Below are positions 37,950 to 44,351 of a stretch of DNA of 64,000 bases, in pieces. This stretch comes from an uncultured delta proteobacterium (GTDB taxonomy: Bacteria > Desulfobacterota > Syntrophia > Syntrophales > UBA2185), in NCBI GenBank assembly GCA_963729715.1, contig CAVSPA010000009.1, positions 1 through 64,000 of the forward strand, given 5' to 3'. The first letter of the stretch is position 1. Each line of letters starts with the position of its first letter. The position numbers and the translations under genes are program-made. A model generated the notes under the pieces. That model saw only the letters and a list, made by a program, of their open reading frames with translations, was not told the DNA's origin and did no database searches.

Positions 37950-38933
37950 CTATTGAAGCGCCTTTTTGCATAGTTCAGTTATGAATATCGGATTGATTGA
38001 ATCCTCCTTGCAGAGTTTCCGAAGATTGAGATAGCACATGGGGCACAGGAAGACCATGGCATCCGCATTCACTTTTTTTGCATCGTCTATATTCCACTTT
38101 TTCACAATCGCCGCCCGTTCTTTGTCGCGTGCCATGAGTGGGGCACCGCAGCACAGTGCATTTATTCTTTCATACTTCCGTGCTGGCCTCTCCACTCCCA
38201 GGAGTTCGAAAATCTTGTCGAGATAGATATCCTTCCCCTGTGTGTAGCGCGAGGCGCAGGGAGATTGGTAAGCAACGCGGATCGGAACCGCTTTGAGTCG
38301 GCCCTCGCGCTTCTTGAGTTCCCGATAGAGGTATTCAAAGATATGGACAGGCTGGAAGGGCACTTTCAAGCCATACTCCTGGGCCAGCGTGGTCAGCATT
38401 GTATAACAGTCGTCGTGGAAACAGATAACTTCTTTAGCTTCCAAGGCGGCGAGCTTCTCAATGAACCTCTTTGCCTCCTTCTTAGCGGAGCTCGGTTTCC
38501 CGAGGTGAATATGTCCAACGGTACAGAAATAGTCCGCACCTTCGACAATCGTCAAATCATCGAAAAGAGGATTGTCCAGAAGTTCACGGACCATATCTCC
38601 CACGATGCACAGATTCAGCACGGGTTTCCCCTCTTTGCCTTTTTTTACGACGGTCGGAAGATTATAGAGCTTAGCGAAGTTCTGCATGGCTTGTTCGGGA
38701 ATGCCGAGGGCACCCGTTTCTTCCTGTCGCTGGTTAAGCAAATCGAATGGATTGGCCTGGGTCGGGCAGACTAAATTGCACGATGCGCAAGTGACGCATA
38801 GACCCACAATCGGCGGTGTTCCTCCCGATACAAGCTCCTTCATTTCCTCCTGAGCCCGATTGAGGTCGTATTCCACATAAGGACAAAACTCCAAGCACTT
38901 TCCACATAAATTGCATTTTTCTTGGTAAAACAA
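37950..38933 (-). CDS. Fe-S protein with 2x[4Fe-4S] and CCG domain (HdrD-like)
   Basis: CNLCGKCLEFCP, CVTCASCNLVCP, PC...CCG...CPMC. Confidence 0.88.
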   Translation of the reverse strand: MFYQEKCNLCGKCLEFCPYVEYDLNRAQEEMKELVSGGTPPIVGLCVTCASCNLVCPTQANPFDLLNQRQEETGALGIPEQAMQNFAKLYNLPTVVKKGKEGKPVLNLCIVGDMVRELLDNPLFDDLTIVEGADYFCTVGHIHLGKPSSAKKEAKRFIEKLAALEAKEVICFHDDCYTMLTTLAQEYGLKVPFQPVHIFEYLYRELKKREGRLKAVPIRVAYQSPCASRYTQGKDIYLDKIFELLGVERPARKYERINALCCGAPLMARDKERAAIVKKWNIDDAKKVNADAMVFLCPMCYLNLRKLCKEDSINPIFITELCKKALQ

Positions 38934-39026
38934 TGATTCCTCCTTGGGTTTTATATTTGGCCGTTTATGTCAGCGTGCTTTCTTACCACAATTCAAAGAT
39001 AGGGTCCTTCGATATCACAATTTTCA

Positions 39027-39097
39027 AGGAAATAACATTAATGATTACAGTTTGAAGTGTCGTATCATCATCGAGATTGATGACTTGCAGATAACAG
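39027..39097 (+). repeat. 71-bp direct repeat, copy 1 (left of IS110)
   Basis: Identical to 40528-40598. Confidence 0.95.
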
Positions 39098-39187
39098 ACC
39101 TTATGATAAAAAAGTAAAAGGCAAGTCTCAACCTTGCATGGTATATTTTGTTTGCCACAACAAAAACATACCCAAAGGAGGCTTGCC

Positions 39188-40246
39188 ATGGTTAAAGGTA
39201 ACAAACTTGATTTCACCGGTCAACACATTTACGTCGGTATGGACATTCACAAAAAGAGCTGGAGCGTCAGCATTCATAATGAACACTTTGAACACAAAAC
39301 CTTTACCCAACCGCCCGAGGTTAAGAAACTGGTATATTATTTACAAAGAAACTTTCCAGGTGCCACCTATCATTCCGTATATGAAGCCGGTTTCAGTGGT
39401 TTCTGGATCCATGACCAGCTAACTCAAGAAGGAATCCATTCCATGGTAGTCAATCCCGCCGATGTCCCGACAAAGCATAAGGAGAAAGCCGGCAAGGCCG
39501 ACAAGGTGGATTGCCGGAAGCTGGGCAGGAGCCTCCGCAGCGGCGACATCAAAGGCATTTACGTTCCTTCCAGGACAGAAGTGGAAGACCGTCACCTGAT
39601 ACGCACCCGCCAGGGCATGGTGAAGAAACAGACGCGGTGCAAGAACCAGATCAAAGCGATTCTCTTTTTTTACGGCATCGCGCTTCCCGAAGAGGGAAAC
39701 TGGTCCAGGAACTTCATCAACCGATTAGATGCTGTCCAAATGGAAAAAGCCAGCGGAGATATTACCCTCAAAGCCCATCTGGAAGAACTGAAGCACCTTA
39801 GACAGATCATCGCCGGTCTCAACAAAGCCATCCTCGCCTTGTCCAGATCCGATACATACAGGGATAAGGTCCTTCTCCTTAGGTCCGTGCCGGGCATCAG
39901 TACCCTCACGGCAATGACGTTACTGACAGAGCTATGTGACATTACCCGGTTTCCATCCATCGACAAGCTTGCCAGCTATACGGGATTGGTTCCCGATATA
40001 AAGTCAAGCGGCGAGACGGCATACACGGCGGGTATCACCCACCGCAGGAATCCCATATTAAGGACCGTGCTCATCGAGGCCTCCTGGGTGGCAGTGCGGA
40101 AAGACCCGGCATTGATGATGGCCTTCCATAAGTTCTCCCTCCGGATGAAAAAGACGGTAGCCATCGTCCACATCGCCAGGAAGCTTTTGAACCGTATCCG
40201 TTTCGTCCTTATGAACCATGAGCAATATGTACCGGCTGTCGTTTAA
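39188..40246 (+). CDS. IS110-family DEDD recombinase
   Basis: VGMDIHK, YEAG, KADKVD, VPGI, YTGLVP...SSG; AAGGAGG RBS. Confidence 0.95.
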   Translation: MVKGNKLDFTGQHIYVGMDIHKKSWSVSIHNEHFEHKTFTQPPEVKKLVYYLQRNFPGATYHSVYEAGFSGFWIHDQLTQEGIHSMVVNPADVPTKHKEKAGKADKVDCRKLGRSLRSGDIKGIYVPSRTEVEDRHLIRTRQGMVKKQTRCKNQIKAILFFYGIALPEEGNWSRNFINRLDAVQMEKASGDITLKAHLEELKHLRQIIAGLNKAILALSRSDTYRDKVLLLRSVPGISTLTAMTLLTELCDITRFPSIDKLASYTGLVPDIKSSGETAYTAGITHRRNPILRTVLIEASWVAVRKDPALMMAFHKFSLRMKKTVAIVHIARKLLNRIRFVLMNHEQYVPAVV

Positions 40247-40500
40247 TTATAAAAAGAACAGGAGCGTATGAAGACAATCTGAAAAATCTTATTTCGTGGG
40301 CAACGGATACTAACTTCCTGCAGCTGATATAAGAATCATGCCTGCTCATTACAGACTACGTGCCCACACATTAAAACCTGACAAAGATAATGCAGCGATC
40401 CCTCAGCGATCTGTCTGCTGATAGGAGAATGCTTTTTGAAGATTGTGCTTACATACACAAAAAATTCAAAAGAACAAAAACTTCCGTCACCCTATGAGTA
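40247..40500 (+). ncRNA. Candidate bridge/seekRNA in long 3' non-coding end
   Basis: GTGGGCA/TGCCCAC stem enclosing CTTCCTG and ATTACAG segments that match the insertion site. Confidence 0.6.
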
Positions 40501-40527
40501 AACAAGAGACTTGCTTTTTTACATAGG

Positions 40528-40598
40528 AGGAAATAACATTAATGATTACAGTTTGAAGTGTCGTATCATCATCGAGATTGATGACTTGCAGATAACAG
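40528..40598 (+). repeat. 71-bp direct repeat, copy 2 (right of IS110)
   Basis: Identical to 39027-39097. Confidence 0.95.
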
Positions 40599-40764
40599 GA
40601 AGATAGCCGGATTCTAAATGAACAGAAAATGAACTGTCTCGCCGTTGCATGTTTCATCTCGCATTCAACGAGCTGCTCTGACAAAACGACCTGCGACTTG
40701 TATTTGTTAGAGAGTAAATAAAAAAATCAGCAGGCAGCTAACGGCGACCCGCAGGAGTGGTTCA

Positions 40765-41175
40765 TCATCTCTTCTGTAAATGTCTTTTGATAAATTCATG
40801 CGGTTTGAGGACTTCTATGCCTTGGTATCCGGAGACCTTCAGCAGATGCTTATCACCGCTAACGATAATCCTGCTTCCACTGGCTATAGCACAGGCAAGA
40901 AATTTGTCATCATCAGCGTCAGTGCACACGGGTTTGGGGAGGTCTTGAGTCTGATACAATTCAGCCTCAATAGTTACCAGATCAAGAATAGGTCTCAAGT
41001 CAATTGAAGGGAATCGCTCGGCAATTGCTTCTCCCACTCTCCAGTATTCTTTAAGTATCTCTTGAGAAATTGCCAATTGAATTTTGCCGTCACGCCATGC
41101 ATTAAGAATTTGATGTGGTGGTCCACTGAAAAAGACTCCGGAAATGAAAACATTCGTATCGACGATAACCTTCAC
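40765..41175 (-). CDS. PIN-domain toxin
   Basis: VIVDTNV, DADDDKFLACA, IVSGDKHLL. Confidence 0.92.
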   Translation of the reverse strand: MKVIVDTNVFISGVFFSGPPHQILNAWRDGKIQLAISQEILKEYWRVGEAIAERFPSIDLRPILDLVTIEAELYQTQDLPKPVCTDADDDKFLACAIASGSRIIVSGDKHLLKVSGYQGIEVLKPHEFIKRHLQKR

Positions 41176-41435
41176 TTGCGACCTCGTGCCTTTGCTATCG
41201 CATCATAGATGTCGGATCTTTTCAATCCAGCCTTTTTTGCTTGCTTGCGGGCTTCAGCAATCAGTTTGTCAAATTCTTCCATGGATGGTTGGGAAAGGGA
41301 TTTGAATATTACCACATCTTTTTCTCCTACAACGACAAATTGCGCGCCAACCTTTAGGTTGAGTCGTTTACGTATATCCTCAGGGATGACTACTTGCCCC
41401 TTGGAGGACATTTTTGTGGTTGCCAATGTTGCCAT
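41172..41435 (-). CDS. AbrB/MazE-type antitoxin
   Basis: SSKGQVVIPEDIRKRL; 4-bp overlap with PIN gene. Confidence 0.92.
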   Translation of the reverse strand: MATLATTKMSSKGQVVIPEDIRKRLNLKVGAQFVVVGEKDVVIFKSLSQPSMEEFDKLIAEARKQAKKAGLKRSDIYDAIAKARGRK

Positions 41436-41570
41436 TATAAATCCTCCTAAATTATTTTCTTACTGGTAAGATTTTAGTATAAGTAATTTGATTTGGCAAG
41501 CCATAAATTTGGTATGCTGTTTTATTTAGATCCGTGGTTCTATCTTTTTTATGGTTCTGGAACTCGATTT

Positions 41571-41882
41571 TCAATCCAGAATTTTTGATCTCAGCAGCTT
41601 TTTCAAAGTTTCATATACGTCTATCTTTGATCCCTCTTTACGTATACCTATGCCGATGACAATAACCGTCACTGTTTTTACTTTCACTTCGTACACAATC
41701 CTGTAGCGGCTCGCGGCATGAATGCTGCGATACCCAGCAAGATTACCAGACAACGCTTTTCCTATTTTGTCAGGTGATTCTTTCAGGGTTTCGATCTTGC
41801 GGCCTATTGCGGTTTTTGCTCTGCCATCCAGGGATCTCAGGTACGCTTTCGCCTCGTCAGTCAGGGTAATTTTATAATTCAA
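41571..41882 (-). CDS. RelE/ParE-family toxin
   Basis: GKALSGNLAGYRS...RYRIVY...IGIR. Confidence 0.9.
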   Translation of the reverse strand: MNYKITLTDEAKAYLRSLDGRAKTAIGRKIETLKESPDKIGKALSGNLAGYRSIHAASRYRIVYEVKVKTVTVIVIGIGIRKEGSKIDVYETLKKLLRSKILD

Positions 41883-42144
41883 TGCCGAGCTCCTGCTTCA
41901 CCTTTTCCCAGTCGGTGACTTTGCCAGATTTAATATCCTGCACGCCCCTTTTAAATGCCTTCATCATGTCCGGATCTCCCAGAATCGCAATTGTTTCGTT
42001 CAGCGACTCATACAGTTCCCAAGGCATGAGTGCAAATACCTGCTTCCCACGAGAAGTTATTGATACTGTCTCGTCCGGCCCCATCTCTTTATGCAATTCA
42101 TTCAATTTTCGCCTTGCTTCGGATATTTGAATTTGCCTGATCAC
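41872..42144 (-). CDS. Phd/YefM-family antitoxin
   Basis: ISEARRKL...ITSRGK...YESLNETIAIL. Confidence 0.9.
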   Translation of the reverse strand: MIRQIQISEARRKLNELHKEMGPDETVSITSRGKQVFALMPWELYESLNETIAILGDPDMMKAFKRGVQDIKSGKVTDWEKVKQELGIEL

Positions 42145-43001: not shown

Positions 43002-44351
43002 GGTAGTGTAAAATCTTTTGTGTAAATTCATGATGGTAGAAAAAAAGGCGCTTTTCCTTTACAAGGGTTTATCCCAAAACCTGAGAGAAAGGAGAAAGCG
43101 CCATGAAACTGGAAATTACAGTAGCCGAAGTTAAGGAGATTTTCAAGGAGATTCAGGAGCAACCGGAGCAACTTTTTGAGATGATGCGATTGGACATCAA
43201 AAAGACGGTTGGGCAATATCTGACAGCGCTGATGAATGCGGAACTCACCCACTTTCTGGGGAGAGAACCCTATGAACGTGGTAAGGATGAAATAAATCAT
43301 CGCAATGGCACCTATGATCGTAACTTCACATTAAAAGACATTGGGAAGGTACAGGTCAAAATTCCCCGAGACAGGGAGGGTGATTTTAAGACCAATGTTA
43401 TTCCCCGGAGCAAGCAGTACGAAGAAGAGATAAGCCGGGATTTAAGCCTGATGTTTTTAACGGGAATCAGTACCCGGAGTCTTTCCATGATCTCCCGTAG
43501 ATTGATCGGGCGGCGTATTTCCCATACAGAGATCAGCCACGCAAATACTGATCTGACAGAGGCCGTTGAGAAGTGGAGGATGAGAGATCTATCCCAGGAA
43601 CCCATCAAATATCTCTTTGTGGATGGTGTGAATTTCCGTATGCGTGTGGGAAGAAGTGTTGAGTTAATACCTGTTCTGGTGTCTATCGGTGTTACAGAAA
43701 GAGGCCACAAGCTGGTTGTAGGTTTGCAAGCCGGGGACAAAGAGTCTGCTTCCTCCTGGAGGGAGTTTTTCAAGGATTTAAAAGTTCGTGGATTGGATGG
43801 CCAGAAAGTTACCCTGGGAATCATGGATGGTTTATCGGGATTGGAATCTGTTTTTGAAGAAGAGTTTCCCAAAGCCAAGATCCAACGCTGCCAGGTCTAT
43901 GTTGCCCGGAATGTTCTGGCCAAGGTACCTAAGAAACTGAAACAAGCTGTGGCGAATGATGTAAGAACCATCTTCTATGCCTCTTCAAAGGAGACGGCGC
44001 TGGAATCTTTTGAAATCTTCAAAAGGAAATGGGAGAAGGATATCCCTTCTGCCGTAAGTTGTTTAGAGAGATCCATTGACGCCTGTTTGTCTTTTTTCAA
44101 CTTCCCCAAGGAAGAGTGGATTTCATTGAGAACCTCAAATATCATTGAACGGTTGAACAAGGAATTTAAACGGAGAACAAAATCCATGGAGATACTGGCC
44201 GGAGAGTCTGCCTGCTATCGTCTCCTGGCCTTTGTCTCTCTAAAAATGGAACTGCATTGGAGATCAAACCCCGTAGGAAAAGTGCAAAAAAACCTGCCAT
44301 TCTTTCAAGAAGTGGCCTATGAAAAATTTACACAATAAAATTGACAGTACC
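43002..44351 (+). mobile_element. IS256-family element
   Basis: 27-bp imperfect IRs GGTAGTGTAAAATCTTTTGTGTAAATT / revcomp GGTACTGTCAATTTTATTGTGTAAATT; no flanking DR. Confidence 0.9.
43103..44338 (+). CDS. IS256 (Mutator) transposase
   Basis: RNG, PRDR, LFVDG, IMDG, QRC, RTSNIIERLNKE. Confidence 0.95.
   Translation: MKLEITVAEVKEIFKEIQEQPEQLFEMMRLDIKKTVGQYLTALMNAELTHFLGREPYERGKDEINHRNGTYDRNFTLKDIGKVQVKIPRDREGDFKTNVIPRSKQYEEEISRDLSLMFLTGISTRSLSMISRRLIGRRISHTEISHANTDLTEAVEKWRMRDLSQEPIKYLFVDGVNFRMRVGRSVELIPVLVSIGVTERGHKLVVGLQAGDKESASSWREFFKDLKVRGLDGQKVTLGIMDGLSGLESVFEEEFPKAKIQRCQVYVARNVLAKVPKKLKQAVANDVRTIFYASSKETALESFEIFKRKWEKDIPSAVSCLERSIDACLSFFNFPKEEWISLRTSNIIERLNKEFKRRTKSMEILAGESACYRLLAFVSLKMELHWRSNPVGKVQKNLPFFQEVAYEKFTQ

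Follow-up and report, generated by a model that had tools for sequence, protein, structure and literature searches.

The question raised by this locus is what the 283 nt of non-coding DNA downstream of a transposase gene (40247-40529) contribute to the insertion sequence (IS) that carries them. The locus lies in a 64,000-nt stretch of DNA from an uncultured member of the Syntrophales, which is called the window here. An earlier note on this DNA had read parts of the region as the guide segments of a candidate bridge/seekRNA. The analysis described below indicates that the region is the non-coding 3' part of an IS1111-type element and that it most likely yields a bridge or seek RNA from the plus strand, which would guide insertion. 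The coordinates of the features are given in Table 1.

Table 1. Features of the insertion sequence, its candidate RNA and its surroundings (window coordinates)
Feature	Position	Strand	Remarks
71-nt direct repeat, left copy	39027..39097	+	100% identical to right copy, spacing 1501; end of ~86-nt module
Insertion sequence	39098..40529	+	1432 nt including one copy of the shared AG; the other AG is 39096-39097
Left subterminal inverted repeat	39116..39129	+	14-nt arm, 93% complementary with 40506-40519
DEDD transposase/recombinase gene	39188..40246	+	352 aa, intact; Pfam and NCBIfam matches
Structured domain (candidate bridge/seek RNA)	40264..40464	+	covariance model R1, 220 bits
Outer stem P0, 5' strand	40275..40288	+	pairs with 40431-40445; closes multiloop holding both modules
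Stem P1, 5' strand	40296..40305	+	pairs with 40359-40367 (GTGGGCA/TGCCCAC)
5' target guide TACTAACTTCCTG	40308..40320	+	variable block; co-varies with right flank
Hairpin P2 between the two target guides	40320..40345	+	GCAGC...CTGC; helix 5, 4 pairs changed on both sides
3' target guide CATTACAG	40347..40354	+	variable block; co-varies with left flank; same sense as left flank + AG
Hairpin P3, second (donor) module	40392..40418	+	GCAGC...TGTCTGC; helix 6, 4 pairs changed on both sides
3' donor guide GATAGGAG	40420..40427	+	same sense as right end ATAGG + core AG; 8 nt after CTGCT
Right subterminal inverted repeat	40506..40519	+	14-nt arm, partner of 39116-39129
71-nt direct repeat, right copy	40528..40598	+	between IS right end and natural right flank
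Natural target, right half	40591..40606	+	GATAACAG joined to GAAGATAG; left half as occupied, 39090-39097

The ends of the element were set by at least eight related copies, among which homology runs from ACCTTATGAT (39098) to ACATAGG+AG (40529). The left flank nearly always ends in AG, and AG is therefore the shared core. The arms of the inverted repeat lie 18 nt (left) and 10 nt (right) from the element ends and are conserved in related copies. Upstream of the gene only 90 nt (39098-39187) are non-coding, compared to the 283 nt downstream, and the element is present as a single copy in the window's own genome. AAGGAGG precedes the ATG of the transposase gene by 7 nt, and the open frame extends upstream to a TTG at 39134. 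The gene product matched the Pfam families DEDD_Tnp_IS110 (PF01548, 1.4e-12) and Transposase_20 (PF02371, 2.1e-20), the N-terminal DEDD (RuvC-like) and C-terminal Transposase_20 domains of the IS110 family both being present, as well as the NCBIfam model NF033542, 'IS110 family RNA-guided transposase', with 207 bits against a cut-off of 140. The translation also contains GLVPDIKSSG, which is the GL-P----S(t)G motif in the C-terminal domain of the IS1111 group. This motif and a downstream non-coding region are described as marks of the IS1111 group in PMC11187229, and PMC11208160 gives subterminal inverted repeats of 7 to 17 bp as the definition of the group, a range that includes the 14-nt arms found here. 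By its layout, inverted repeats and motif, we place the element in the IS110 family, with an IS1111-type layout. A search of solved structures returned the ISCro4 transposase as the sole match, a weak one (E = 0.0012), in whose pairwise alignment GMD, YEAG, KADKVD and SSG, the candidate stretches for the catalytic D, E, D and D and the C-terminal serine of the SG motif, stand opposite GID, MEAT, KTDAVD and SGS, with only 4 bits for the first stretch. In a plasmid search, annotated IS110-family genes reached 29 to 39% identity at most, and the matches were unnamed or ISHvo9-like. Judged by identity, the transposase is only distantly related to named elements.

A -35-like hexamer, TTGCTT (40511-40516), lies 17 nt from TATGAT (39102-39107) when the two are read across a circle junction. 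TATGAT was flagged as a -10 by a scan of the linear sequence, and the spacing of the hexamers was read directly from the letters; equivalent TTGCTT and TATGAT hexamers, with equivalent spacing, are readable in two related copies (L045 and L046). A putative junction promoter would arise if the element circularised, and circle-junction promoters are described for IS110/IS1111 elements in PMC11187229.

Several other features of the neighbourhood were recorded. The start of a CCG/4Fe-4S (heterodisulfide-reductase-like) gene, together with its upstream region (38700-38997), has a 95% identical copy elsewhere in the same genome (G000:C18:38088-38385). Just to the right of the element, two toxin-antitoxin-like pairs lie on the minus strand (40765-41435 and 41571-42144), one consisting of a PIN-domain protein and a MazE/AbrB-type antitoxin and the other of small overlapping genes. 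About 2.5 kb further right of the element lies an open frame of 411 aa (43103-44338), the translation of which looks by eye like that of another transposase.

Relatives with 59 to 91% identical proteins were found in 9 of 61 sister genomes (E <= 1e-30), and public contigs from MAGs and metagenomes contributed further relatives (8 and 18 loci), among which the named records are Syntrophaceae/Syntrophales MAGs. These copies are not independent, as kin share guides and kinds of target, and independent changes number closer to 15 than to 25. One of them, L027 (JBKQMP010000031.1, 3411 nt), carries the window's 1432-nt IS exactly but in another context. Its contig was placed in the bin of a Dissulfurispiraceae MAG, outside the Syntrophales lineage of the relatives, which reflects either recent transfer or a binning error. 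At four places, the window's genome matches 36-nt words of the L027 left flank with 100% identity. When an empty site for L027 was sought in the window's genome, its left flank led to short repeats only and its right flank to no match at all. An identical IS in yet another context is held by a contig of run X1, and because identical copies occur in at least two other contexts (L027 and the run X1 contig), the element has been recently mobile. The 21 listed sequencing runs are all DNA; the four that were examined as Logan contigs contained the identical IS in other contexts and the window's flanks in none, and no joints were reported.

The non-coding region folds into a conserved structure. The minimum-free-energy fold of 40247-40540 gave z = -2.6 and contained both stems around an internal loop, and the consensus fold of 20 copies agrees with this single-sequence fold. 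The two stems are those that the earlier note had described, with GTGGGCA (40296-40302) and TGCCCAC (40361-40367) forming the outer one and GCAG/TGAT (40320-40328) and ATCA/CTGC (40335-40345) the inner one. P1, the internal loop and P2 make up a first module, and P3 with the single strands on either side of it makes up a second. P2 and P3 have the frame GCAGC...TGTCTGC in common, and CTGCT is followed in each module by 8 nt of which the last two are AG, namely CATTACAG in module 1 and GATAGGAG in module 2. For the outer stem P0 (helices 1 and 2), 97% of the cells were paired and 4 pairs had changes on both sides; for P1 (helices 3 and 4), C:G becomes U:A or G:C in distant copies. Compensated changes in all of P0, P1, P2 and P3 were seen in the distant copies L045, L046, L058 and L059. 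Over 26 copies, 97.1% of 1005 cells were paired and 14 of 39 pairs were changed on both sides in an alignment that was fitted to the model and hence leans towards the fitted structure, compared to 3 to 5 pairs when the partners were slid, and 0 of 500 shuffles reached this level. Conservation in module 2 and in the outer stem equals that in module 1, and two-sided pair changes occur there too. G:U pairs were found only when the structure was read on the plus strand. A scan of 38500-41500 with Rfam 15, at E values up to 10, gave chance-level matches to unrelated families only.

Identity in the non-coding region averages 86% among 20 copies, and the variation is concentrated in the two sides of the internal loop. 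The reverse complement of the 5' target guide, CAGGAAGTTAGTA, reads as the last base of the left flank, the core AG and the right flank. As the earlier note had observed, CTTCCTG (40314-40320) within this guide is the reverse complement of CAGGAAG, here at 40596-40602, and ATTACAG (40348-40354) agrees at 6 of 7 positions with ATAACAG (39091-39097 and 40592-40598). Words of this length are not rare in a single sequence. The matches amount to more than chance because the loop sides are the only variable blocks in a conserved region and co-vary with the flanks. For scoring, 10 duplicate records of the same insertion were removed, leaving 22 independent insertions on the right, where the score was the longest run that the right flank has in common with the reverse-complemented 5' side; on the left, the score covered the 6 non-core positions (18 insertions, 14 distinct guides). 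On the right, runs of 8 to 10 were found for 14 of the 22 insertions (L010, L011, L016, L035, L037, L038, L039, L041-L045, L047 and L051), runs of 5 or 6 for six (the window, L013, L015, L036, L046 and L052), a run of 4 for one (L027) and a run of 2 for one (L021). Two of the poor right fits, L013 (run 5) and L021, are decayed copies; on the left, the fit was poor, with a run of 2 from the core, for L013, L018, L021 and L041. The summed right-flank runs reached 163, compared to a shuffled mean of 93.8, and those of the 15 distinct guides 110, compared to 57.9. On the left, the sums were 66 compared to a shuffled mean of 39.4, and 48 compared to 28.8 for the distinct guides. In each of these four comparisons, 0 of 20,000 shuffles reached the observed sum. 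In the right-flank comparison of the 15 distinct guides, the off-diagonal mean run was 3.6, and 2.4% of mismatched pairs reached 8.

Single copies support the same relationship. A covariance-model search of 151 genomes of the order, in which 7 genomes matched, supplied three held-out copies, and all three fit, with runs of 9, 9 and 8. L038 has a guide ending in ATTACG and the flank GATTACG, and L043 a guide ending in ATTACC and the flank GATTACC; similarly, L010 has GAAGC in both guide and flank, compared to GAAGT in the window's guide. L035 is inserted at ATTACAG followed by GAAGAAAG. The preferred target proposed in the earlier note, ATTACAGGAAG, agrees with the site of L027, whose identical element sits behind CATTACAG, an 8/8 match to the 3' guide. 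Failure of homologue targets to co-vary with the segments had been named in that note as the result that would speak against its reading, and co-variation was instead found on both sides of the insertion. Taken together, these results demonstrate that segments of the internal loop match opposite target strands, overlap at the core and co-vary with targets across relatives, as is expected of the guides of a bridge/seekRNA, and they support the identification of the segments as guides.

The second module carries a match to the element itself. ATAGGAG (40421-40427) is identical, as had been pointed out, to the final 7 nt of the IS when the shared AG is counted (40523-40529), and it co-varies with the right end. 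In all four variant copies (L039, L045, L046 and L059), ATAGAAG is found in both the donor guide and the right end, and in the remaining 21 of 21 copies both have ATAGG. L018 and L058 carry the A variant in the donor guide, their right ends lying outside the sequence seen. GATAGGAG has the same register beside P3 as the 3' target guide has beside P2, and the position of module 2 fits the donor-binding bases that are noted in the multiloop for many IS1111 members (PMC11208160). The earlier note had not clearly seen a second donor guide, and an exact-word search of the non-coding region against the core and left end returned A-runs only, which 1391 of 2000 shuffles reach. Two candidates for a left-end guide that were picked out by eye proved too weak to keep. 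One of them, CTT/CGTT, had a single matching change, in L046, and the other was a 7/8 same-sense match confined to L046.

From the window's own guides, the target is predicted to be CATTAC-AG-GAAGTTAGTA. When the natural insertion site, ATAAC-AG-GAAGATAG, is compared to this prediction, 6 of 7 positions agree on the left and, counted from the C before the core (40596-40606), 10 of 11 on the right. A sister genome contains an uninterrupted look-alike site (L070), in which GATAACAG is followed directly by GAAGATAGCTGG; therefore, insertion adds the element and one AG. A sister species (L010) has the same left flank, the IS and then GAAGCTAC, which its own guide matches over 9 to 10 bases. The occupied site of the window is found where a repeated module of intergenic sequence, about 86 nt long (39012-39097, ATATCA...GATAACAG), comes to its end. 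This module was found in 7 of 10 sister genomes, often at several loci (L069-L077). It always ends in GATAACAG. The IS has inserted exactly at its right boundary, and the sequences 3' of it differ, mostly starting with GAAG or GAAT. A place within a gene was considered for the module, but only small frames of 30 to 43 aa run across it in L070 and L071. To the right of the target, 40596-40656 belongs to a second repeated element with 84 to 90% identical copies on three contigs of the window's genome (C12, C6 and C4; loci L002, L003, L004 and L007), and L004 carries an unoccupied look-alike site, GTAACAG followed by GAAGAAAG.

The fit of the window's immediate right flank is poor (run of 5) because a 71-nt repeat separates the element from its natural flank. 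A perfect repeat of this kind around the IS is unusual for IS110/IS1111 elements and was found in only 1 of 17 copies with both flanks, that of the window. Long flanking repeats were rejected as a general feature, since the other 16 two-flank copies share words of 9 nt or less. AGGAA is present at both ends of the 69-nt unit of the repeat. The repeat may have arisen by slippage, the element then inserting at the resulting junction of ATAACAG with GAAAT. Alternatively, sister chromosomes may have exchanged unequally, either through homology or through action of the recombinase at a weak site, TTTTCA-AG followed by GAAAT, or the assembly may be a chimera of two insertion variants. That the repeat is the footprint of an off-target exchange by the RNA-guided recombinase, and hence a natural segmental duplication, is doubtful. 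In such an exchange, the right-end junction, ATAGG-AG followed by GAAG, would have recombined with TTTTCA-AG followed by GAAAT, 69 nt upstream, on the other sister chromosome.

A different irregularity was seen at the right junction. Of 25 copies, 8 have ATAGG-GG-AA... there in place of ATAGG-AG-GAA... (L011, L013, L036, L037, L041, L042, L044 and L047), the guide match then starting one base later. Six of these eight copies have the guide GGAATGACA in common, and in L011 the target GGAATGAC... opens a palindrome, GGAATGACA...TGTCATTCC. L035 and L036 share one guide and differ in the register of the right junction, and in the run X1 contig this junction is one base longer. Pairing in the target loop seems to be tolerated in either of two registers that differ by one base. 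If true, the off-target duplication and the two registers would bear on the natural precision of RNA-guided recombinases.

These observations suggest how insertion may proceed. In the candidate RNA, P0 would enclose the two look-alike modules. Of the two target strands, the top one would be bound by the 5' side of module 1, across the core AG and about 7 to 9 right-flank bases, and the bottom one by the 3' side, across about 6 left-flank bases and the core. The two matches overlap at (C)AG, the predicted site of strand exchange. In module 2, GATAGGAG would act in the same manner on the right end of the element and the core, binding their bottom strand. Once the RNA was produced and bound, the DEDD recombinase would exchange strands so as to join a circular form of the element (right end-AG-left end) to sites resembling ...CATTAC-AG-GAAGTTAG....

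It is unlikely that the RNA is instead a seekRNA in the narrow sense, in which only module 1 guides (about 80 to 100 nt, roughly 40290-40370), the protein recognises the ends by way of the subterminal inverted repeats and the donor-flanking target halves, and the ATAGGAG match has some other cause or none. Such an RNA would need no second donor guide, and none was found; it would also resemble the 82- to 96-nt RNAs that co-purified with IS1111-type transposases, which PMC11187229 describes by their target matches, and agree with the requirement for donor flanks in the excision of IS1111-type elements described there. The match of a 7-mer to the right end is not significant on a single sequence, as 429 of 2000 shuffles reach the longest word in common. 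However, GATAGGAG not only ends in AG but lies in the register of the 3' target guide, as the 8 nt that follow the CTGCT of a look-alike hairpin, the G/A variant is common to it and the right end in every variant copy with agreement in all the others, and module 2 and the outer stem have been conserved like module 1, with pair changes on both sides.

The conserved fold could in principle be a 3' untranslated or DNA-level regulatory structure, with the likeness to the flanks arising from repeats that share IS sequence, and the window's target does lie within a repeated module. This reading is highly improbable, since the 5' segments, in 15 distinct versions, follow 15 right flanks that are unrelated to one another, at a fixed junction register, one strand is matched as its complement and the other in the same sense, and the single-base differences between L038 and L043 and between L010 and the window are compensatory; RNA guidance has, moreover, been shown experimentally for IS110-family transposases (PMC11187229, PMC11208160). 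Chance matches in an AT-rich spacer can be all but dismissed, for although single 7-mers are common, as the shuffles of the right-end word illustrate, none of the 20,000 permutations reached the observed fit, the held-out copies fit in every case, and the structure itself co-varies. An RNA with both target guides and a donor guide is thus the reading that we prefer.

The core of IS621 is CT, compared to AG here. A 2024 study by Hiraizumi et al. (PMC11208158) reportedly concerns the bridge RNA of IS621 and the IS110 group. According to Durrant et al. 2024 (PMC11208160), the bridge RNA of IS621/IS110 elements has target and donor modules with look-alike stems and guides that cover the core dinucleotide, one per strand, and acts with a DEDD-type recombinase that has a Transposase_20 domain, all of which resemble the features found here. 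It differs in being encoded upstream, in the left end, with the guide order reversed, whereas the region studied here is downstream, holds the donor module in a multiloop and has one visible donor guide. The seekRNAs of the IS1111 elements ISEc11, ISPa11, ISKpn4 and ISPst6 (Siddiquee et al. 2024, PMC11187229) are closer in layout, as they share the non-coding region downstream of a DEDD transposase, the subterminal repeats and the GL-P----SG motif, a repeated element as target, and the guide order (top-strand complement first) and overlap, and as described there no long target duplication is expected. Unlike those elements, the one studied here also conserves a second module with a donor-end match, its RNA is predicted, its host is an uncultured member of the Syntrophales, and its transposase is at most 39% identical to annotated plasmid-borne IS110-family genes. 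ISPpu9 of Pseudomonas putida also belongs to the IS110 family, inserts into repeated extragenic targets and has an RNA gene downstream of its transposase (PMC12288879). In that account, the RNA, Ssr9, is dispensable for transposition and a hybrid junction promoter is absent, whereas here the downstream candidate RNA carries target guides and a junction promoter is readable. ISPpu9 is further described as forming alternative circles with or without an adjacent module (PMC12288879), which provides a precedent for an enzyme that uses end-like sequences beside its element.

The mechanism is therefore already known, as that of the IS1111-type seekRNA or bridge RNA described in 2024, and our results leave it unchanged. 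They add to it a recently mobile element of the IS1111 type that is uncharacterised and comes from uncultured Syntrophales. Its natural copies carry at least 15 different target guides on a near-constant scaffold and so form a ready-made reprogramming series. From this series it can be seen where slippage of the register occurs and which loop positions are read, namely the core and about 7 to 9 bases on the right and about 6 bases and the core on the left.
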